From positions 1 through 46,917 of IMG/VR virus record IMGVR_UViG_2974695582_000001: 46,917 bases of DNA, one strand, 5' to 3'. The translations under genes and the position numbers were made by a program. A model generated the notes under the pieces. That model saw nothing but the letters and a program-made list of their open reading frames with translations, made no database searches and was not told the DNA's origin. Below are positions 2,298 to 17,885 of this stretch, in pieces (the stretch's first letter is position 1; each line of letters begins with the position of its first letter). The stretch is from a virus (Duplodnaviria; Heunggongvirae; Uroviricota; Caudoviricetes).

Positions 2298-3065
2298 TTA
2301 TGACTTCTTAATGGTATCCATACAGACAGGGAAATGCTCGTGAGTAATATCAAATACCGCCCGTGCATAATCCTGAATTTCCTTTTGAGCATCGTGCTCA
2401 AGTCGCTGGTGAAGGAAATGAGTCACAGCACCTAGAGATACCGTCCAACGCCAACGAACATAAAGTCCATATGCTGGGAGAAAGAGCCGCGCCTGCTCTG
2501 CGCAAATCCCGTTGGCCATTGCAGAATCGTAGAGGTCAATACTTGTACGAACAAGCTCTGTAAGCTCATCCGTCCAGAAGTTACCATACTCTTCCGCAAA
2601 ATCGTTCCTGATATCGAGCGCATAGTCATTATATCGCCAAGCACCCCACTCAACATCATCAAGTGACTTCAGTGGTTCACCAGAGCCCTGCTTACGATTT
2701 TCTGGAGCAGAGCGCCATTCGTTTGGCGCAGGAACATAAAACTCCGGGATTTCAGTTACATAACGACGAGAAGACTCATTCCAGCCATTCTGGTCCTCAA
2801 GGTGGGTTGAAGCTACTGCATACTTCCACCATTGACGTGCTACGAAGAGTGGTGCATAAACCTCAAAAGTGAGAGCGGAATGACGGAACACCGAGCTGTG
2901 CTCTTCACGTTGAAGAAAGGCGAGAAGCCGTGCTTCTCTATCCCCAAACTCTTCCGACTCCTTAGCAAAAGAAACCTTTGCTGAGTTCACGGGGTCAAGG
3001 TCATCACCCATGTGCTTAATGTATCGAACATAACCCTTGTCTAGAACATTAATTCTTTCCGTCAT
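2298..3065 (-). CDS. thyX: Flavin-dependent thymidylate synthase ThyX
   Basis: INVLDKGYVR..MGDD, HSSVFRH, APLFVARQWWKY, WNESSRRY, HAQKEIQ-like segment; ATG 3065 follows GGGAGG (track start 3083 is less likely). Confidence 0.9.
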   Translation of the reverse strand: MTERINVLDKGYVRYIKHMGDDLDPVNSAKVSFAKESEEFGDREARLLAFLQREEHSSVFRHSALTFEVYAPLFVARQWWKYAVASTHLEDQNGWNESSRRYVTEIPEFYVPAPNEWRSAPENRKQGSGEPLKSLDDVEWGAWRYNDYALDIRNDFAEEYGNFWTDELTELVRTSIDLYDSAMANGICAEQARLFLPAYGLYVRWRWTVSLGAVTHFLHQRLEHDAQKEIQDYARAVFDITHEHFPVCMDTIKKS

Positions 3066-3279
3066 ACGCGCCTCCCAAAACATGTCTCATCGTCGCCTCA
3101 TGGGCATTTGTCATTTCGTACTTCCTACGAGCCTCATCATAGCCCGCCATAATTGCGTTGGCAAACCAGCCAAGCATCATATCCTCATCCATGATATCGA
3201 TAGGTTCGTTTTCCCAAACCTTCATGAATTCCTTTGCCCAAATTTGAGCATCTGTCGTGCTTGTATCAAACTTCGTCAT
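3049..3279 (-). CDS. Hypothetical protein (76 aa)
   Basis: ATGA overlap with the upstream gene; natural-looking composition. Confidence 0.75.
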   Translation of the reverse strand: MTKFDTSTTDAQIWAKEFMKVWENEPIDIMDEDMMLGWFANAIMAGYDEARRKYEMTNAHEATMRHVLGGAYDGKN

Positions 3280-4124: not shown

Positions 4125-4150
4125 AGAGTTCTCCTTCTCTTTAATTTAAG

Positions 4151-4223
4151 AGCCTAGTGTGGGAATCGAACCCACGACCTTTTCCGTACCAAGGAAATGT
4201 TCTACCACTGTCACTAACTAGGC
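4151..4223 (-). tRNA. tRNA-Thr(GGT)
   Basis: Cloverleaf GCCTAGT/ACTAGGC, anticodon arm TTTCC-TTGGTAC-GGAAA, T-arm GTGGG-TTCGATT-CCCAC; CCA not encoded. Confidence 0.95.
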
Positions 4224-4325
4224 GCAGCCCCGAAGGGCGCGGTGCAGGCAGCCGTTTAACTAGTATAAGCCGTCCGCGAAGCTTGTCGGTCCCCAAAAAG
4301 GAGAAGAAAAACGGGACCGACTGCG
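4224..4325 (-). ncRNA. Structured inter-tRNA spacer B (candidate ncRNA)
   Basis: 9-bp stem GTCGGTCCC/GGGACCGAC around a pyrimidine-rich loop; further hairpins AAGCT/GGCTT and GCCC-TTCG-GGGC. Confidence 0.4.
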
Positions 4326-4396
4326 AGCCGGATGATGGAATCGAACCATCGCCTCATCTTTACGAGAGATACAGTCTACCACTGAAATAATCCGGC
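4326..4396 (-). tRNA. tRNA-Thr(CGT), weak D-stem
   Basis: GCCGGAT/ATCCGGC, anticodon arm TATCT-CTCGTAA-AGATG, T-arm GATGG-TTCGATT-CCATC; CCA not encoded. Confidence 0.9.
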
Positions 4397-4508
4397 ATTT
4401 GTAGTCTGCCTCCCCTGCAACTAGGTACTACAGACAAGCCCCGAAGGACATTTCCTCGGAAGCAGAGGTACGGGTCGGTCGCATTCTCACCGCACGTACT
4501 CCCAATTG
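4397..4508 (-). ncRNA. Structured inter-tRNA spacer A (candidate ncRNA; contains the module repeated at 11205-11244)
   Basis: Several stems (GGG-A-GTACG/CGTAC-CTC; TCTGCTTCC/GGAGGCAGA; CTGTAGT/GTTGCAG) and similarity to a second locus. Confidence 0.5.
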
Positions 4509-4581
4509 AGCCGCCTGTCGGTCTCGAACCGACCACCTCTTGTTTACAAGACAAGTGCTCTACCAGATGAGCTAAGGCGGC
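4509..4581 (-). tRNA. tRNA-Thr(TGT)
   Basis: GCCGCCT/AGGCGGC, D-arm GCTC/GAGC, anticodon arm CTTGT-CTTGTAA-ACAAG, T-arm GTCGG-TTCGAGA-CCGAC; CCA not encoded. Confidence 0.95.
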
Positions 4582-8105: not shown

Positions 8106-8140
8106 AGGCCCACCGTGGGCCAGAAGGAGTTTTGCTTTTT

Positions 8141-10084
8141 ATGGATTTCATTGACGCTACGGGCCGCATCAACGACCCTTACCGTAACTTTATTCACCTA
8201 TCCCGTTACTCAAGGTGGCTAGACACTGAGGGACGCAGAGAGACTTGGGTTGAGACTGTTGACCGTTACATCGACTTTATGCTCAACCACCTAAAGAAGA
8301 ACAATGGTTATACCCCACCACAGAACCACATTGACCTTGTTCGTGGATACATTCTAGAACATCGAGCACTTCCGTCTATGCGAGCACTTATGACCGCAGG
8401 ACCAGCGCTTGAGAGAAACAATATTGCAGGTTATAACTGTTCCTATGTCGTTGTTGACAATCCCGTTGCATTTGATGAGATTCTCTACATCCTCATGAAT
8501 GGTACAGGGGTCGGATTCTCCTGTGAGGAGCGTTATGTTTCACAGCTTCCAGTAATCCCACAGCTTCACGATTCAGATAACGTAATTGTAGTTGAGGATT
8601 CAAAGGAGGGATGGGCTCATGCTTATCACGACCTTGTTGCAGGTCTTTACAATGGAGTTATCCAGAAGTGGGATGTTAGTAAGGTTCGTCCGGCTGGAGC
8701 AAGACTTAAGACGTTTGGTGGTCGTGCATCTGGTCCAGACCCGCTAGTTGAACTCTTTGAGTTTACAGTTTCTACTTTCCTTAAGGCACAGGGCCGCAAG
8801 CTCACTGACCTTGAGGCTCACGACATTGTTTGTGAGATTGCAAGTGTTGTAGTTGTTGGCGGGGTTCGTCGTTCAGCTCTTATTTCTCTTGGTGACCTTG
8901 GTTCTGACGGACACCGTTCGGCTAAGTCAGGTAACTGGTGGGAGAAGGATGGACAGAGGGCTCTAGCAAATAACTCAGCCGTTTTCGATTCAAAGCCTAG
9001 TCGAGAGGTGTTTGATAGAGAGTGGCAGGCTCTAATTGATTCTGGTTCAGGTGAGCGTGGAATCTTTAACCGTGAGGCTTCTCGTAAGCAGGCAGCTAAG
9101 TTTGGTCGTCGTGAGCATGATGTGGATTATGGAACTAATCCATGTTCTGAAATCATTCTTCGTCCAAATCAGTTCTGTAACCTTTCAACTGTAGTTGTTG
9201 AGGCTGATGATACCTACATCACCTTGGCTTCAAAGGTTCGAGCAGCAACAATTCTTGGTACCTGGCAGTCTACACTAACAAACTTTAAGTATCTTCGACC
9301 TCTTTGGAAGCAGAATACTGAGCAGGAGCGACTTCTCGGAGTTTCGATGACTGGTCCATTTGGTAATAAGTTGCTGAACGGAACGATTTCATTCGGAAAG
9401 ACGGAGGATGTTCTTGTTGCTCTACGCTTTGAAGCAGTAAAGATGAATCAGATTGTTGCTGACGAAATTGGAATTCCTCGTTCTGCTGCAATCACTTGTG
9501 TTAAGCCAGAAGGAACAACTTCACAGCTTACTCTTACATCATCGGGATTGCACGCTTGGCATAAGGAAGAGTATATTCGTACAGTCAGAATGGACCGCAA
9601 GGACTCGCTTTGCCAGTTCATGATTGATGCTGGATTCCCGTGGGAGCCAGATGTTATGAATCCAGAGAATACGGCTGTGTTCTCATTCCCAATTGAGGCT
9701 CCAGAGGGTGCTATTACACGTCACGAGTTGGATGCAAAGCGCCATCTTGACCTTTGGATGCTATATCAGCGTGCATGGTGTGAGCACAAGCCTTCTGTCA
9801 CGATTTACGTGAAGCCAGAAGAGTGGGATGAGGTTGGAGATTGGGTTTACGAGAACTTCGATGAAGTTTCTGGTATTTCCTTCCTTCCTCATTCAGAGCA
9901 CACATATCAGCAGGCTCCATATCAGGACATTACCCGAGAGGAATATCTTGAGTGGGTAGAGAGAATGCCTAAGGATGTCGATTGGGACCTTCTTTCTTCT
10001 TATGAATTGGAAGATGAGACTACTGGAACACAGGAACTAGCTTGTACTGCTGGTGCTTGTGATGTAGTTGATGTAGTTAGATAA
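8141..10084 (+). CDS. nrdJ: Class II (adenosylcobalamin-dependent) ribonucleotide reductase
   Basis: PSMRALMTAG, YNCS, GTGVGFS, TNPCSEI active-site motif, ITCVKPEGT, HKPSVT, C-terminal CTAGAC; ATG 8141 fits the AAGGAG RBS better than TTG 8132. Confidence 0.92.
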   Translation: MDFIDATGRINDPYRNFIHLSRYSRWLDTEGRRETWVETVDRYIDFMLNHLKKNNGYTPPQNHIDLVRGYILEHRALPSMRALMTAGPALERNNIAGYNCSYVVVDNPVAFDEILYILMNGTGVGFSCEERYVSQLPVIPQLHDSDNVIVVEDSKEGWAHAYHDLVAGLYNGVIQKWDVSKVRPAGARLKTFGGRASGPDPLVELFEFTVSTFLKAQGRKLTDLEAHDIVCEIASVVVVGGVRRSALISLGDLGSDGHRSAKSGNWWEKDGQRALANNSAVFDSKPSREVFDREWQALIDSGSGERGIFNREASRKQAAKFGRREHDVDYGTNPCSEIILRPNQFCNLSTVVVEADDTYITLASKVRAATILGTWQSTLTNFKYLRPLWKQNTEQERLLGVSMTGPFGNKLLNGTISFGKTEDVLVALRFEAVKMNQIVADEIGIPRSAAITCVKPEGTTSQLTLTSSGLHAWHKEEYIRTVRMDRKDSLCQFMIDAGFPWEPDVMNPENTAVFSFPIEAPEGAITRHELDAKRHLDLWMLYQRAWCEHKPSVTIYVKPEEWDEVGDWVYENFDEVSGISFLPHSEHTYQQAPYQDITREEYLEWVERMPKDVDWDLLSSYELEDETTGTQELACTAGACDVVDVVR

Positions 10085-10095
10085 GAATTCACTTA

Positions 10096-10124
10096 GAACC
10101 CGGCCAAATAGGCCGGGTTTCTTT
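10096..10124 (+). terminator. Intrinsic terminator after nrdJ
   Basis: AACCCGGCC-AAATA-GGCCGGGTT followed by TCTTT. Confidence 0.85.
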
Positions 10125-10151: not shown

Positions 10152-10174
10152 GTATGAAGGAGGTGAAAGATAAT

Positions 10175-11188
10175 ATGGCAACACCAATGACGGCAACACA
10201 AATTGTCGCTCAGCTAAAGAAGTGGGGAGTTCCTTATAAGGAGTATAAGGATTGGAAGAACCACAATCGTAATCATATGGGTGCATGGGGTCCTGTAAAC
10301 GGATTCATGGTTCACCACACAGGTTCCGACAGCAAGGACCAGCGTGAACTACTTTACGCGGGTATTTCTGGTCTTCCTGGTCCACTTTGTCATTTCGGCC
10401 TTGCTCAGGATGGAACTGTCCACCTAGTTGGATGGGGAAGAGCAAATCACGCGGGGTCTGGTGACCCAGACGTTCTAAAGGCAGTAATTGATGAGAGCTA
10501 TGGAGCAAATCCGCCTGTAGACAATCAGTCTTCAGTTGACGGAAATGCAAGGTTCTATGGTGTAGAGATTTGGTATTCGGGAAGTCATGCAATGTCAGCA
10601 GCTCAGTATGCGACTCTTCGCAAGCTGGCTTCAGCTATTTGCGATTTCCACGGATGGTCAGAAAAGAGCGTAATTGGTCACGGTGAATGGGGAAGTCCTG
10701 GTAAGTGGGACCCCGGCATTTCATCAGGAAAGATGATGGATATGGCAAAGGTTCGTGCGGACGTTAAGTCTACTCTTGGCGGAAGCAAGACGCCTGACCC
10801 AGTTCCATCAAAGCCAGCAGATTCAGCAAGCACTCACACAGTTGTAAAGGGAGAAACCCTTTGGGCTATTGCTTCTAAGTACAAGGTGAGTGTGGACAAC
10901 CTAAAGAAGTGGAATAACCTTAAGTCAGAGTCTCTTGACGTTGGTCAGAAGCTCGTTGTTAAGGCTCCAGCATCGACAGGAGGTACAGCTACAGTGGCAA
11001 AGAAGGACGCAACTTATAAGTCAGTTTGGGATTTGGATGCATCAACTCCACCAAAGGGACATGAGACCACAGCTAACCCAACTTGGGCACCTATGAGCAT
11101 TCTTCGTGGTATCTATGAAAACCTTGAGACATTGTCTAAGAAGGTTGACGAGCTATCCAAGAAGATTGACGCACTAGAATCTAAGTGA
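10175..11188 (+). CDS. Endolysin: N-acetylmuramoyl-L-alanine amidase + LysM domain
   Basis: Amidase_2-like MVHHTG, ANHAG, FYGVE, VIGHGEW, KWDP; LysM HTVVKGETLWAIASKY...NLKKWNNL; GGAGGTGA RBS before ATG 10175. Confidence 0.9.
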   Translation: MATPMTATQIVAQLKKWGVPYKEYKDWKNHNRNHMGAWGPVNGFMVHHTGSDSKDQRELLYAGISGLPGPLCHFGLAQDGTVHLVGWGRANHAGSGDPDVLKAVIDESYGANPPVDNQSSVDGNARFYGVEIWYSGSHAMSAAQYATLRKLASAICDFHGWSEKSVIGHGEWGSPGKWDPGISSGKMMDMAKVRADVKSTLGGSKTPDPVPSKPADSASTHTVVKGETLWAIASKYKVSVDNLKKWNNLKSESLDVGQKLVVKAPASTGGTATVAKKDATYKSVWDLDASTPPKGHETTANPTWAPMSILRGIYENLETLSKKVDELSKKIDALESK

Positions 11189-11194
11189 TATAAT
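11166..11194 (+). promoter_or_regulatory. Strong promoter TTGACG-17-TATAAT in the 3' end of the endolysin gene
   Basis: Near-perfect consensus; no RBS-led ORF before the next terminator. Confidence 0.8.
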
Positions 11195-11200
11195 CTAAGT

Positions 11201-11303
11201 ACAGCCTAGGAAATGAGTCCGGGTTGTCTGTGGCGCTAGTGCAGCGCTCTTTAGGATGGAATTATAATTACCGTCATAGCCTCGCCTTCGGGCGGGGCTA
11301 TTG
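11201..11303 (+). ncRNA. Candidate stand-alone small RNA (~100 nt)
   Basis: Bracketed by its own promoter and terminator; hairpin-rich; shares sequence with the tRNA-operon spacers. Confidence 0.6.
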
Positions 11304-11310
11304 GCGTTTT
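11276..11310 (+). terminator. Terminator-like hairpin
   Basis: ATAGCCTCGCC-TTCG-GGCGGGGCTAT then TGGCGTTTT (imperfect U-tract). Confidence 0.7.
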
Positions 11311-11330
11311 CGATGCTATTCCGGTATAAT
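11301..11330 (+). promoter_or_regulatory. Promoter TTGGCG-18-TATAAT
   Basis: 10 nt upstream of ATG 11341. Confidence 0.6.
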
Positions 11331-11340
11331 TCAAATTACA

Positions 11341-13035
11341 ATGACTTATATCTATCATGTTAGAAGAGATAATCCGATTGGACTCTGGTCTTTCGACTCG
11401 CAACCTCTCAATGACGATTCCGGATATGGCGCTAATGCCACTTTTACCGGGTCTCCAACTACAACCCGCCCAATTGTGTCCGGTGGGGTTGCGGCTCAGC
11501 ATGTGGATTCTGCTGACACAATCAATTACCCAATCACCAACATTATGATTGAGGGTAGAGAGTACCGCGCATTTTCACTAGAGGCTTGGATTAAGCCACA
11601 GACCGGAAACGGGACTATCCTTGCTCGTGATGACAGCGGACTGTTCCTTGACGGTCTAAATCTTAGATTCTCGGTGGCATTTGGTACTACTGTCAGTGTA
11701 ACTTACACCCATTTGGATGCAGGAAATGTATATCATGTTGTAGGTGCATTTGATGGTCAGTCTATTCTTCTATTCCTTAATGGTCAGGTAGTTGCTAGTG
11801 CAGAGGTTGACAGGTCAATTGTAGATACTGGATTTGCCGATACTTCTTCGGTCATGAAGACGGCATCGACAGGCTCTTTTGTAATTGATACTCCAGCAGT
11901 TTACAATTATGCACTAGATTCATCATCAATTAATAGGCATTACTATGATGGAATTGATTATCCAGAAATTGTTAATCTTTCTCTAAATAATGGAGGTAAG
12001 TATTATCAGTTCTCAGACTCACATGCCAAGGTCTATGAGACCATTTCATTTGGTGATACTGATTCGTGGAGCCTAGGTCTGTTTGATGTCACTCTGGCTG
12101 AAGTAGATAACAAATTGGTAAACCTATATGATGAAGCTTCTGAAGATTGGCTAGGTGGAGTGTGGACGTACCAATACTCAGTTGATGTTGAAACCGGCGC
12201 GGGTATTACTTTGAATGGCTCTCGTATCACCTGGGATTCTTTGGGGTCAATTACTGTAGAGACATCTGTTGATGGTACTACGTGGACTCCAGTAACAAAT
12301 GGAAGTTCGATTGTTGGAACTCAGGACCTATCTACAGGATATGTCATTTCGGTTAGAATTACTCTCCCAACAACAACTGAGCAAACTTACGTAGACAATC
12401 TAAAGCTTGTATTTTATACAGACAAGACAGTGTATGGAAGTGATGAGTCTCTTCCAGCTACATTCGTTGACCCACTTACAGTAACTCTAGCTGAAGAAGC
12501 TTATGCTCCAGCTAGTTTTAATGACAATCTTGGAGTGTTGCTTCCAGCGAACAATGGATTTTCAATTCCTGCCGATACCGACTTTGACCCTTACAATGCC
12601 GTAGAAATGACAGTCAGATTTGATACTAGTACAGCTAGTAAGACTGTTCTATCAGTGGGTTCAGCTTCCATCACAACAAACGGAACCGGACAGTGGACAT
12701 TTACGGGACTATCAGCTCTTTATATTGACGGACAGGCTGTTACATCACCCGCAACAATTTCGCCTGGTATGTGGCATCACGTCCTTGCTGTATTTACAGG
12801 AACAACTTCTCCAGTGTATGTAGGAAATAGCTCTGCTGGAACTGCTGGATATCCGATGAGGGTTGGTTATCTCGCCCTATACGCAAGTGACATTACCTCA
12901 ACGATGGCAGATGCAATTTATGATGCTTGGGTTGGTACAGCAGCTATTAGAGTGTCTGAAACTGCTATTGGACAGATTTCTGAGGGTGGTTTCCGAGCTT
13001 ATGCCTACGACTGGTCAATTACTGGCGCAGGATGA
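11341..13035 (+). CDS. Virion-associated protein with LamG/concanavalin-A-like domains
   Basis: PIGLWSFD, FSLEAWIK, YHVVGAFDG...LFLNG and WHHVLAVF patterns; true start 11341 (the track extension runs through the sRNA). Confidence 0.75.
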   Translation: MTYIYHVRRDNPIGLWSFDSQPLNDDSGYGANATFTGSPTTTRPIVSGGVAAQHVDSADTINYPITNIMIEGREYRAFSLEAWIKPQTGNGTILARDDSGLFLDGLNLRFSVAFGTTVSVTYTHLDAGNVYHVVGAFDGQSILLFLNGQVVASAEVDRSIVDTGFADTSSVMKTASTGSFVIDTPAVYNYALDSSSINRHYYDGIDYPEIVNLSLNNGGKYYQFSDSHAKVYETISFGDTDSWSLGLFDVTLAEVDNKLVNLYDEASEDWLGGVWTYQYSVDVETGAGITLNGSRITWDSLGSITVETSVDGTTWTPVTNGSSIVGTQDLSTGYVISVRITLPTTTEQTYVDNLKLVFYTDKTVYGSDESLPATFVDPLTVTLAEEAYAPASFNDNLGVLLPANNGFSIPADTDFDPYNAVEMTVRFDTSTASKTVLSVGSASITTNGTGQWTFTGLSALYIDGQAVTSPATISPGMWHHVLAVFTGTTSPVYVGNSSAGTAGYPMRVGYLALYASDITSTMADAIYDAWVGTAAIRVSETAIGQISEGGFRAYAYDWSITGAG

Positions 13036-16821: not shown

Positions 16822-17817
16822 ATGAGTAATGAATTGCTAGAGAAGGTTATCCGTACCACCGAAGTTGGTGCTGGTGGCGGTGGTCTTCTAAACGCTGAGC
16901 AGGCAGACCGTTTCATTGACTACATGTGGGATGCTACTGTACTTGGTTCACAGGTACGTACAATCCGTATGCGAGCAACTGAGATGGATATTGACAAGGT
17001 TGGTGTTGGTGAGCGTCTAATGCGTGTAGCTACCGAGGCTGTTGACGATGGTGTCAACGCTGGAGCAGTCTTCACGAAGATTTCGCTAACCACCAAGAAG
17101 TTGCGTCTCGACTGGGAGCTTTCAACTGAGTCTCTTGAGGACAACCTTGAGGGCGAGGCTCTTGAGGACCACATTGCGCGCCTTATGGCAACGCAGGCTG
17201 GTAACGATATCGAGGATGTTGCTATTAATGGTAACACCGCGCTTACTTCCGACCCGCTAATGAAGGCATTTGACGGTTGGCGCAAGCTAGCCCTTGCCGG
17301 TGGACACGTTGTTGACCACGCGGGACAGCCACTTAACCGTGCTGCTGCGAACAAGGCTCTTAAGGCGATGCCACGTAAGTACATGCAGCGTCGTAACGGT
17401 CTTAAGTTCTTCACAGGTTCTAACTTGATTCAGGATTACCTATACGGTCTTACCCAGACTGCATCTGGTCTAATCTCACTTGAGAACGTCGCAGAGGGAG
17501 TTACACGTAACGGTGTTCGTACTGATGGTCCTGCTGGATTCAACAGTACACCAATGTTCGGTATCCCAACTCAGGAAGTACCACTATTCCTTGAGACTGT
17601 TGATGGAGACTATTCAGGTGCTACGGGTGACCACGGTGACCTATGGCTAACATTCCCACAGAACATGCTCTGGGGAGTTAAGCGAGAGATTCAGGTCTAT
17701 CGCGAGTTCAAGCCAAAGAAGGACACCATCGAGTACACAATGTATTGCCGTGTTGGTACACAGATTGAGAATGCAGACGCTTTTGTTGTTGTAAAGAACA
17801 TCAAGGTTTCAGCCTGA
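16822..17817 (+). CDS. Major capsid protein (HK97 fold)
   Basis: Position after protease/scaffold; GGGLLNAEQADRFID, ESLEDN, NGNT segments; strong GGAGGTGA RBS; terminator downstream. Confidence 0.9.
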   Translation: MSNELLEKVIRTTEVGAGGGGLLNAEQADRFIDYMWDATVLGSQVRTIRMRATEMDIDKVGVGERLMRVATEAVDDGVNAGAVFTKISLTTKKLRLDWELSTESLEDNLEGEALEDHIARLMATQAGNDIEDVAINGNTALTSDPLMKAFDGWRKLALAGGHVVDHAGQPLNRAAANKALKAMPRKYMQRRNGLKFFTGSNLIQDYLYGLTQTASGLISLENVAEGVTRNGVRTDGPAGFNSTPMFGIPTQEVPLFLETVDGDYSGATGDHGDLWLTFPQNMLWGVKREIQVYREFKPKKDTIEYTMYCRVGTQIENADAFVVVKNIKVSA

Positions 17818-17832
17818 TAATTCTGTCTGACA

Positions 17833-17858
17833 GACCCCCGCTTTCGAGCGGGGGTTTT
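17833..17858 (+). terminator. Intrinsic terminator after the capsid gene
   Basis: GACCCCCGCT-TTCG-AGCGGGGGTT-TT. Confidence 0.9.
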
Positions 17859-17885
17859 GTCGTTGAACGGACTGTCTGCTATAAT
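17857..17885 (+). promoter_or_regulatory. Promoter TTGTCG-17-TATAAT
   Basis: Extended -10 TGC; overlaps the terminator tail. Confidence 0.7.

Follow-up and report, generated by a model that had tools for sequence, protein, structure and literature searches.

A conserved small RNA gene of Stanwilliamsviridae phages with candidate antisense complementarity to helix 69 of host 23S rRNA

MicL and DapZ of E. coli and Salmonella are small RNAs (sRNAs) that have their promoters inside the 3' end of the upstream gene and share a terminator with the mRNA. Terminated short RNAs or paired 5' hairpins are found in the lambda PR'-tR' '6S' RNA (Q antitermination) and in HK022 put RNA, and phi29 pRNA (Rfam Phage_pRNA) and T4 RNAs C and D are stable, structured phage-encoded RNAs other than tRNAs. 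We know of no function for T4 RNAs C and D, of no need for a packaging RNA in a terminase-type siphovirus and of no Q-like factor in the phage described here, the host clade of which to our knowledge lacks Hfq. Lambda PreS and other trans-acting sRNAs of phages and prophages pair with host mRNAs in Hfq-containing enterobacteria (10.1101/2024.10.31.621285; PMC12197685). A synthetic PNA antisense to helix 69 of 23S rRNA is described as invading the hairpin, blocking translation and stopping growth of E. coli (Kulik et al. 2017, as cited in PMC10777018 and PMC12828698), which shows that the site is open to antisense. Literature searches returned no actinobacteriophage regulatory RNA with a known function and no paper on the sRNA reported below, which is marked in none of the annotated phage records inspected.

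The window, the whole stretch of 46,917 nt that was analysed, comes from a Streptomyces phage of cluster BE (Gilsonvirus; 99.4% to Karp), of which it forms the left 47 kb. The phage is of the terminase-type siphovirus kind and its relatives are large lytic ~130-kb actinophages of the Stanwilliamsviridae. Phages bearing the sRNA carry ~40 tRNAs plus a tmRNA each, a heavy investment in the translation apparatus to which pairing of the sRNA with helix 69, if true, would be an addition. The sole ARAGORN matches in the window were tRNA-Thr genes at 4150-4581, and an Rfam 15 scan of the whole window gave three tRNAs only. The unit of interest occupies 11166-11310 (+), between the endolysin gene (also annotated in the records of relatives) and ~35 kb of + strand virion genes. 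Its features and those of its neighbors are:

10154-11188, + strand: endolysin gene (Amidase_2, PF01510, 3.7e-18; LysM, PF01476, 4.1e-17)
11166-11194, + strand: sRNA promoter, with -35 TTGACG at 11166-11171, a 17-bp spacer and extended -10 TGaTATAAT at 11186-11194
11201-11310, + strand: predicted ~110-nt noncoding RNA, with its probable start at A11201 and its probable 3' end in the U-run at 11307-11310
11201-11227, + strand: helix P1, with lower stem ACAGCCU/GGGUUGU, upper stem GGA/UCC and apical loop AAUGAG
11232-11248, + strand: helix P2, GGCGCU-AGUGC-AGCGCU
11245-11272, + strand: candidate antisense block CGCUCUUUAGGAUGGAAUUAUAAUUACC, complement of 23S rRNA 5'-GGUAACUAUAACCAUCCUAAGGUAGCG-3'
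11272-11310, + strand: predicted two-part intrinsic terminator, with basal helix CGUC/GGCG and upper stem AGCCUCGCC-UUCG-GGCGGGGCU, then UUUU
11301-11343, + strand: promoter and start of the LamG-domain gene, TTGGCG-18-TATAAT at 11301-11330, with -10 at 11325-11330 and ATG at 11341

The initial annotation, made from the sequence alone, had proposed that a TTGACG-17-TATAAT promoter is built into the last endolysin codons. It was located as claimed: the extended -10 TGATATAAT at 11186-11194 overlaps the endolysin stop codon (TGA, 11186-11188), the match is 11/12 with the TG extension present, and a promoter scan gave it the top score within 9-14 kb. The pattern TTGAnn-17(18)-TGnTAnnnT is retained in 22/22 distinct relatives, including those with a differing endolysin C terminus, and in all 22 the promoter ends at a fixed distance, 6 nt before the first base of P1. 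The predicted promoter is of the sigma-70 (HrdB) type, its TTGACA-like -35 and TAnnnT -10 hexamers having a spacing within the 16-18 bp of that type and being kept in relatives. Promoter-like sites of the same class number ~80 on the + strand across the genome. The RNA start was placed at A11201, the seventh nucleotide after the -10 element.

About 100 nt past the promoter, the 11-bp UUCG hairpin reported at first reading was found at 11276-11301 (AUAGCCUCGCC-UUCG-GGCGGGGCUAU; 11 pairs, one G-U). Below it a basal helix of 4 bp joins CGUC (11272-11275) to GGCG (11303-11306), and UUUU follows at 11307-11310. A simple terminator scan misses the hairpin because the U-run comes after the basal helix rather than after the upper stem. 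Changes on both sides were seen in 4/4 basal and 6/9 upper pairs (10/13), with 98-100% of alignment cells paired. The G+C-rich hairpin, the U-run and a stem kept by compensatory change together fit an intrinsic terminator, the U-run being UUUU in the window and numbering only 2-3 U in some relatives. A terminator of the same two-part design (17818-17866) follows the gene that ends at 17817.

At the other end of the RNA, P1 is paired in 100% of alignment cells and three of its pairs vary (G-U/G-C/A-U; C-G/U-A; U-G/U-A). Its apical loop AAUGAG (11212-11217) is invariant, with an unpaired probability of 0.96. P2 occurs as four sequence types across the family, and 18/18 distinct versions fold as a hairpin (-4.6 to -11.8 kcal/mol); between types the alignment shows compensation, with U-A replaced by C-G and G-C by A-U. 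P1 and P2 adjoin without a linker, giving a rod of two hairpins. The fold z-score of the sRNA is -3.07. Two resemblances that were considered for this part of the RNA were rejected. A closing helix CUAAGU/ACUUAG would have its 5' side upstream of the probable start, where it varies without compensation, the 3' side being invariant. Mimicry of RNase P RNA CR-I, which P1 seemed to resemble, was no better than in shuffles, 108-467/500 of which scored at least equally.

Each of 87 related phage records has the sRNA unit in a single syntenic copy, which in every case follows the endolysin gene, and metagenomic relatives also carry it. The intergenic sRNA body is more conserved than the flanking genes. 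Two helices covary: 95% of cells are paired, 13 pairs changed on both sides, and the covariation score of 0.327 (vs 0.144) was reached by 0/500 shuffles and collapsed when the partners were slid. G-U pairs are frequent and valid on the + strand only, which fixes the strand of the RNA. The covariance model R1 matches 11201-11313 at 109.7 bits (E 6e-25) and finds one copy per genome. A further match at 17760-17869, considered as a second copy, proved to be only the terminator after the gene ending at 17817, and the tRNA-operon spacer RNA at ~4397-4508, which has words in common with the sRNA, differs in fold and gave no model match. No Rfam 15 family reached its gathering threshold for the sRNA. 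A permissive search of 11100-11400 (E up to 10) gave as its best match the Pseudomonas rnk leader, which scored 23.8 bits where the threshold is 55; that match is driven by the terminator. ARAGORN detected no cloverleaf or tmRNA architecture at the locus. As for cellular homologues, a pattern of 16 specified bases run against 185,579 species genomes gave chance matches only (at most 20 bits), and no convincing match to the covariance model came from 151 sampled Actinomycetes.

With these single-copy records, the 22/22 promoters, the covariation and the lack of a conserved open reading frame (ORF), the proposal of a stand-alone small-RNA transcription unit is upheld, and we are highly confident that the locus is a genuine sRNA gene. 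The same data bear on a signal acting at the DNA level (an operator, packaging site, replication site or terminal-repeat boundary). High nucleotide conservation, an intergenic position and closeness to the left genome end would suit such a signal, but the compensatory changes and strand-specific G-U pairs indicate RNA. Moreover, the terminal repeat of the record is only 734 bp and ends far from the locus, and the stretch of endolysin plus LamG-domain gene occurs once per genome record. We regard a DNA signal as the least probable of the readings considered.

Coding is hardly more credible. The first reading had found no ORF led by a ribosome-binding site and had attributed the only ORF across the interval to over-extension of the LamG-domain gene. 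Both observations held: the sole crossing ORF in the window is a TTG-started over-extension at 11224, and most relatives have in-frame stops 9-24 nt before the LamG ATG, which block an N-terminal extension. A micro-peptide (MSPGCL[G/W]R...) could instead start at the AUG in the P1 loop, and all relatives agree in its first six to eight codons. However, that ORF varies from 8 to 49 aa with unrelated tails and is not conserved, and it has no usable ribosome-binding site, the only candidate being a GGA 2 nt before the AUG and paired in P1. Invariance also reaches upstream of the AUG, and the helix changes are compensatory, not 3-periodic. A translated product, which had been named at the outset as an explanation to be checked, is thus very improbable.

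A third alternative is that the element acts in cis, either as a terminated leader or antitermination signal before the virion genes or simply as a structured 3' UTR that terminates and insulates the endolysin mRNA. It heads those ~35 kb of + strand genes, begins at +1 with two adjoining hairpins as does put RNA, uses a terminator common to the sRNA and the endolysin transcript, and stays with the endolysin gene where the downstream gene differs. The next gene, however, has its own promoter, as had been asserted: TTGGCG-18-TATAAT was found, its -10 element lies 7-10 nt before the ATG in the window and in relatives with the LamG-domain gene, and the element is retained even where another gene follows. 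Because no Shine-Dalgarno sequence is present, the LamG-domain mRNA is read as nearly leaderless. A put-like or Q-type leader was rejected since the downstream operon does not lack a promoter of its own. A riboswitch or attenuator was likewise rejected, as the GAUGG/CCGNC antiterminator pairing is not maintained and an invariant linker is accompanied by freely varying upper terminator stems. The strong covariation of the terminator implies that it is meant to form, and a bare terminator needs neither 70 nt of near-invariant sequence nor its own conserved promoter. A cis-acting element is therefore unlikely, although less so than a peptide.

Given a stand-alone sRNA, a concrete candidate function is offered by its complementarity to 23S rRNA. 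The whole sRNA was aligned locally with the reverse complement of 16S and most of 23S rRNA. The best alignment was the helix 69 site in 8/8 members tested, with 23-24 identical positions over 26-29 columns, and its score was matched by 0/300 shuffles in six members, by 1/300 in the window and by 7/300 in the member L013. The 23S site comprises the helix 69 loop, the 3' strand and the 3' flank in the actinomycete form CCAUCC, a stem that the sRNA suits, in contrast to the E. coli CGGUCC. The antisense block includes the invariant UUAGGAUG (11251-11258) and UUACCG (11268-11273), and its candidate seeds are CUUAGGAUG and UUACC. Perfect pairing extends over a 10-mer (sRNA CUUAGGAUGG with 23S CCAUCCUAAG). 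Two features count against the antisense reading: the 5' end of the complementarity (CGCU) belongs to P2, as part of its 3' strand, and CUUAG has a possible pairing partner within the sRNA.

This complementarity is conserved. Across 29 sequences UUAGG(A/G)UG and UUAC(C/U)G are invariant or wobble-variant: the invariant blocks show just two substitutions, A to G (giving GGGUGG) and C to U (giving UUACU), and pairing survives both as G-U. All 29 homologs give a predicted duplex of -28.9 to -34.6 kcal/mol, whereas shuffles average ~-11 and reach -17 to -24 at best, and 20 rRNA positions are paired in at least 26 of the 29. Unpaired probabilities of 0.45 (UUAGGAUG), 0.76 (spacer) and 0.73 (UUAC) are those of a conserved accessible seed, although the low value for UUAGGAUG counts against the antisense reading. 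When the 27-mer reverse complement from one member was searched with up to three mismatches in four actinomycete genomes of 8-9 Mb (which may not be Streptomyces), only 23S copies matched, and control queries in the same search gave 0 matches. Of 151 sampled Actinomycetes, 77 contain the rRNA 27-mer without a mismatch.

When 113-nt segments were drawn at random from the same phage genome (400 draws), 1, 17, 1, 0 and 1 of them did as well as the sRNA or better, an empirical p of ~0.003-0.04 per genome that is of moderate strength, the homologs not being independent. BLAST of the whole phage genome against the rrn operon gave chance matches of similar bit score, so the significance depends on starting from the 113-nt query and a short list of host RNAs. 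On these sequence comparisons, we put action of the sRNA on 23S rRNA at just under an even prospect.

It is also possible, though a somewhat weaker prospect, that the stand-alone sRNA is genuine and its rRNA match coincidental. Its partner would then be either a host mRNA, with UUAGGAUG as the seed, or a protein that binds the invariant P1 loop and the P1-P2 rod (the RNA serving as sponge, decoy or scaffold). All of the evidence that the gene is real holds equally for such an RNA. P1 is nearly invariant and lies outside the rRNA match, which implies some other constraint on it. Its direct junction with P2 is an arrangement seen in many protein-binding RNAs, and the whole-genome BLAST shows that chance can give matches of similar score once the search space is larger. 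Coincidence is harder to reconcile with the location of the match on the invariant, mostly unpaired half of the RNA, with its retention in 29/29 homologs through indels and wobble-compatible changes, and with 23S rRNA being the sole near-complement in four host-like genomes. Nor did five phage genomes provide an alternative target: RNAduplex scans, complements of at least 10 nt and 7-mers shared by at least 4/5 genomes gave no conserved antisense site within the phage. For the P1 loop, a 12-nt complement at 2413-2424 was not conserved and an imperfect complement of 13-14 nt in the rrn operon was not significant, and the endolysin 5' UTR had no consistent site. Even if the rRNA match is coincidental, the sRNA constitutes a clean, covariation-supported new RNA family suitable for Rfam.

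If the RNA does act on 23S rRNA, a plausible course of events is as follows. Host RNA polymerase with the housekeeping sigma factor would start at the consensus extended -10 promoter within the final part of the endolysin gene. The P1-P2 rod would begin with the first base of the transcript, a largely unpaired A/U-rich stretch would follow, and the two-part hairpin with its U-run would end the RNA; the same terminator would also end endolysin transcripts and insulate the LamG-domain gene, which has its own promoter. The part of the RNA that begins in the 3' strand of P2 and ends at the base of the terminator is complementary to helix 69 (loop and 3' strand) and the next eleven nucleotides, in the actinomycete form. 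The partner of the RNA could be nascent 23S rRNA or the 23S rRNA of free 50S subunits, in which helix 69 is exposed, and such pairing may disturb the intersubunit bridge of helix 69 (B2a) or 50S maturation. The supply of ribosomes would thereby be reshaped or throttled during infection.

The helix 69 stem and 3' flank are structured in mature ribosomes, and invasion by the sRNA may therefore be hard. A ribosome inhibitor made from a strong host-type promoter would also harm phage translation, which counts against the antisense reading. Genes for L12 and L24 were absent at Pfam level from this genome, which thus lends no support to a ribosome-directed toolkit. Searched for in other phages, anti-H69 sequences turned up in the phage collection solely as rRNA contaminants, and IMG/VR gave no exact match. 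Weighing these points, we consider it nearly an even proposition that this is an independent ~110-nt noncoding RNA gene whose product pairs with the helix 69 region of 23S rRNA. The fuller reading, that of a Stanwilliamsviridae-wide antisense RNA against host 23S helix 69 that controls subunit joining or ribosome biogenesis, is more tentative; it would be the first natural virus-encoded anti-rRNA riboregulator so far as we have found.

All sequenced members found of a family of ~90 well-studied teaching-collection phages have the sRNA, and the promoter-sRNA-terminator cassette is experimentally tractable in Streptomyces. In its layout it is like MicL and DapZ, with a promoter in the last codons of the upstream ORF, a shared terminator, a length of ~100 nt and a conserved single-stranded seed, but it has no sequence or structural homology to them and its candidate target is rRNA rather than mRNA. 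Lambda '6S' and put RNA provide the parallel of a strong constitutive promoter, a short terminated RNA directly upstream of virion genes and two 5' hairpins. In contrast to those systems, the downstream gene of the phage unit has its own conserved promoter, no alternative pairing is known, and the body of the RNA shows sequence selection beyond the needs of a terminated leader. From phi29 pRNA and T4 RNAs C and D the sRNA differs in size and architecture, and it has no Rfam match. Like lambda PreS, it is phage-encoded, stand-alone and presumably base-pairs with a host RNA, whereas it comes from lytic 130-kb actinophages and its best complement is 23S rRNA. The sRNA shares with the anti-H69 PNA, as that oligomer is described in the papers citing it, complementarity to the helix 69 hairpin. 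The PNA is an artificial 13-mer directed against E. coli, whereas the sRNA is a natural RNA of 110 nt with ~27 nt of predicted complementarity to the actinomycete form. If the helix 69 pairing is true, the synthetic anti-H69 oligomers explored as antibacterials would have a natural counterpart in the sRNA, which would represent a new viral route to the host ribosome, by RNA-RNA pairing with rRNA instead of by a protein factor.

In the 129,015-bp genome whose left 47 kb make up the window, the 2.9 kb around the predicted small RNA (sRNA; about 110 nt, + strand, 11201 to about 11310) are 99.2-99.4% identical to Streptomyces phages Karp, Belfort and Stigma (Stanwilliamsviridae, Gilsonvirus; actinophage cluster BE) and about 77% identical to Gilson-, Annadreamy- and Blueeyedbeauty-type phages. 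The direct terminal repeat in the record is only 734 bp (1-734 and 128282-129015); cluster BE1 phages are reported to have one of about 11 kb (PMC5764925). The elements of the locus are as follows.

Features around the sRNA (window coordinates)
8132-10084, ribonucleotide reductase gene, with its own terminator at 10096-10120
10154-11188, endolysin gene (Amidase_2 + LysM)
11166-71, sRNA promoter -35 element, TTGACG, followed by a 17-bp spacer with TG at its end
11189-94, sRNA promoter -10 element, TATAAT, overlapping the endolysin stop
11201-11227, helix P1 (RNAalifold); its top (UAUGGAAAUGAGUCCG) is an invariant block
11232-11248, helix P2, of four sequence types, each folding as a hairpin
11250-58, invariant block YUUAGG(A/G)UG
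11268-73, invariant block UUAC(C/U)G
11272-75/11303-06, terminator basal helix CGUC/GGCG (RNAalifold)
11276-11301, upper hairpin AUAGCCUCGCC-UUCG-GGCGGGGCUAU
11278-86/11291-99, terminator upper helix (RNAalifold)
11301-11330, second promoter, TTGGCG-18-TATAAT, with an ATG 10 nt past its -10
11341, ATG of the Laminin_G_3 (LamG-type) protein gene, annotated there in all relatives and followed by a small ORF and then the portal gene

The TTGACG-17-TATAAT promoter that the initial annotation had placed across the end of the endolysin gene is present there, scores 11/12 (the best within 9-14 kb) and is kept in 22/22 distinct upstream sequences, always with a TTGAnn -35 and a TAnnnT -10 preceded by TGn; the spacer is 17 bp long, except for one of 18 bp. 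In these sequences the first P1 base lies 6 nt (7 nt once) past the -10 hexamer, and promoter and spacing are kept even with a different endolysin C-terminal peptide. Given the conserved promoter and the fixed -10-to-P1 distance, we infer that the RNA starts at A11201 and thus opens exactly with P1. The whole genome has 82 TTGACN-N16-18-TAnnnT sites on the + strand versus 8 on the - strand, many with a TG(n) extension, and the set is a large group of host-type promoters in the early region. Most of these sites lie between 59 and 123 kb. Their numbers and TG extensions assign the predicted sRNA promoter to the host-polymerase class common in this phage, and it would presumably be active without phage factors.

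The UUCG hairpin and the next gene's own promoter, likewise proposed from the sequence alone, were both found in place. The LamG-domain gene lacks a Shine-Dalgarno sequence and its -10 element is conserved 10 nt before the ATG (window 11301-11343), and its mRNA is probably translated as a leaderless or nearly leaderless transcript. In LukeCage-type phages only 6 nt separate the -10 from the ATG. A cis-acting role for the RNA (terminated leader, put-like antiterminator, or no more than a 3' UTR plus insulator) is unlikely, since the following gene retains a promoter of its own and there is no sign of regulated read-through. A weak 29-bit match at 17760-17869, considered as a second sRNA copy, proved to be no more than the terminator that follows a gene with its end at 17817. 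With its GACA/UGUC base, G+C-rich top and UUUCG loop, that terminator is built in two parts like the one of the sRNA, and like it has a promoter, TGCTATAAT, directly 3'; terminator and promoter together lie at window 17818-17885. The shared design gives independent support for the sRNA 3' hairpin being the phage's standard terminator type, and the virion module appears to be punctuated by junctions of this terminator-promoter kind.

Queried with the 127-nt interval, blastn gave 87 phage records, all Streptomyces phages of 121-134 kb, and in all 87 the unit occurs at one place, immediately after the endolysin, both in records with that gene at 10 kb and in those with it at 22 kb. Scans of IMG/VR and metagenomes supplied further relatives, giving 29 distinct sequences, and a covariance model built from these found a single copy per genome in six complete genomes; no homolog was found in the bacterial genomes searched. 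The intergenic body is more conserved than the flanking coding sequence in an alignment of members from two subfamilies and five genera (identity about 85-87% for the RNA versus about 77% for the genes).

The 121 nt past the -10 fold at -46.2 kcal/mol (z = -3.07), and none of 200 shuffles folds as well. Across the 29 sequences 95% of cells in the pair count are paired, 13 pairs have changed on both sides and the covariation score is 0.327 against 0.144. The observed values were reached by 0/500 shuffles on four of five measures and by 1/500 on the fifth, and sliding the partners by 1-3 columns collapsed the covariation signal. P1 is 100% paired with variation at three pairs, differences between the P2 types are compensatory, and double changes occur at 4/4 basal and 6/9 upper terminator pairs. 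Many pairs are G-U (26/29 at one P1 position, for example); since a G-U pair turns into an A-C mismatch when the opposite strand is read, the alignment identifies the + strand as the structured one. The idea that the interval is a signal at the DNA level is poorly supported, and we consider it extremely improbable.

The ORF starting at the AUG in the P1 loop varies from 8 to 49 codons among relatives, with unrelated tails, and the reading frame that runs into the LamG-domain gene from upstream is open in the window and closed in many relatives by stop codons 9-24 nt ahead of the ATG. Judged by these comparisons the interval is not coding, in agreement with the initial annotation, and a micro-ORF is a poorly supported and very improbable explanation of the locus. 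Rfam 15 gave no match at gathering thresholds, which places the sRNA outside known families; at E up to 10 only sub-threshold, terminator-driven matches to the region appeared, and ARAGORN reported nothing at the locus. Full-text literature searches on the phage family, cluster BE and Streptomyces phage small RNAs gave genome announcements and unrelated work, with no mention of the sRNA. The proposed stand-alone small-RNA unit is thus supported by its conserved promoter, covarying structure, single copy per genome and lack of coding, and the strong comparative support indicates an undescribed family-wide phage small-RNA gene.

Intramolecular pairing does not explain the invariance of YUUAGG(A/G)UG and UUAC(C/U)G. 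A closing helix with CUAAGU upstream of P1 was rejected (the CUAAGU side precedes the inferred start and varies freely), as were pairing of CUUAG with CUAGG after P1, which is possible in the commonest P2 type and lost in the others, and an antiterminator, as no such pairing covaries with the terminator. The A/U-rich spacer contains a perfect TATAAT at 11265-11270 (TATACT or TATATT in relatives), which may be a sigma-dependent pause or only the complement of the loop of helix 69, a 23S rRNA hairpin. Five complete phage genomes contained no conserved complementary site for the sRNA. On the minus strand at 2413-2424, 12 nt (GACUCAUUUCCU) are perfectly complementary to the invariant P1 loop region; they sit in a small hairpin within the minus-strand gene 2298-3083, and the sites conserved in three or more genomes did not include them. 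The spacer RNA between two tRNA-Thr genes (4397-4508, minus strand) shares words with P1 (GGAAAUG..UCC..GGG.UUGUCUGU) and is nearly identical in Gilson and Annadreamy, and the same pattern search gave no match in LukeCage and Muntaha. Kinship with the sRNA was rejected: the fold differs and the sRNA model has no match there.

Three abundant host-type RNAs from actinomycete genomes were compared with the sRNA. A presumed likeness of P1 to RNase P RNA was no better than shuffles. The 23S rRNA contains CCAUCCUAAG, the perfect complement of sRNA CUUAGGAUGG, and when sRNA 11245-11272, from the 3' strand of P2 to the terminator foot, is set against the reverse complement of 5'-GGUAACUAUAACCAUCCUAAGGUAGCG-3', 23-24 positions are identical over 26-29 columns. 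This site, at about E. coli 23S nt 1908-1934 (annotated gene; numbering possibly one off canonical), by the textbook helix assignment covers helix 69 from the last two nt of its 5' strand through the loop and the 3' strand, and a further eleven nt. Against 16S and most of 23S it was the top local alignment in 8/8 members tested, and its score was reached by 0/300 shuffles in six members, 1/300 for the window and 7/300 for the member L013. The sRNA GGAUGG fits only the CCAUCC of actinomycetes, versus CGGUCC in E. coli; the rRNA 27-mer is exact in 77/151 sampled Actinomycetes genomes, including all copies of a 9.2-Mb genome with six rrn operons. One member's 27-mer, searched as its reverse complement with three mismatches allowed, matched only 23S copies in four actinomycete genomes of 8-9 Mb, with 0 control matches.

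Predicted duplexes are of -28.9 to -34.6 kcal/mol in 29/29 homologs (shuffles about -11 kcal/mol, best -17 to -24), and 20 rRNA positions are paired in at least 26/29 despite indels in the A/U-rich spacer. Substitutions within the invariant blocks are limited to A-to-G (GGGUGG) and C-to-U (UUACU), and both pair as G-U. In five phage genomes, each sampled with 400 random stretches of 113 nt, 1, 17, 1, 0 and 1 of these equalled or beat that genome's sRNA, roughly p = 0.003-0.04, the homologs not being independent. Three host RNAs went into the comparison, and BLAST of the whole phage genome against an rrn operon gives chance matches of comparable bit score; the case therefore rests on the small query, the overlap with the invariant, mostly unpaired half and the wobble-compatible variation. 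We put the chance that the complementarity is functional a little below even, and helix 69 is an unexpected and testable candidate target. The main rival, a serious but minority possibility, is that the RNA is real and acts on another partner; in its favor, invariant P1 lies outside the rRNA match, so something else must constrain P1.

Free 50S subunits expose helix 69, which together with 16S helix 44 makes up bridge B2a. Given this exposure and the effectiveness of a PNA antisense there, it is conceivable that the phage RNA binds free 50S subunits or nascent 23S rRNA, which could hinder subunit joining or 50S maturation. Speculatively, the phage might benefit from throttled synthesis of new ribosomes, from ribonucleotides freed for the adjacent ribonucleotide reductase or from biased initiation. 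The main conceptual objection is that a blanket ribosome inhibitor would harm phage translation too. A BE1 relative is reported to encode uL24-like and L7/L12-like proteins (PMC12509530); Pfam searches found neither in this genome and thus we do not count them as support. As cited in PMC10777018 and PMC12828698, a PNA complementary to helix 69 invades the hairpin, blocks translation and inhibits E. coli growth (Kulik et al. 2017). That PNA is synthetic and acts in E. coli, whereas for the phage sRNA binding to the same helix is proposed.
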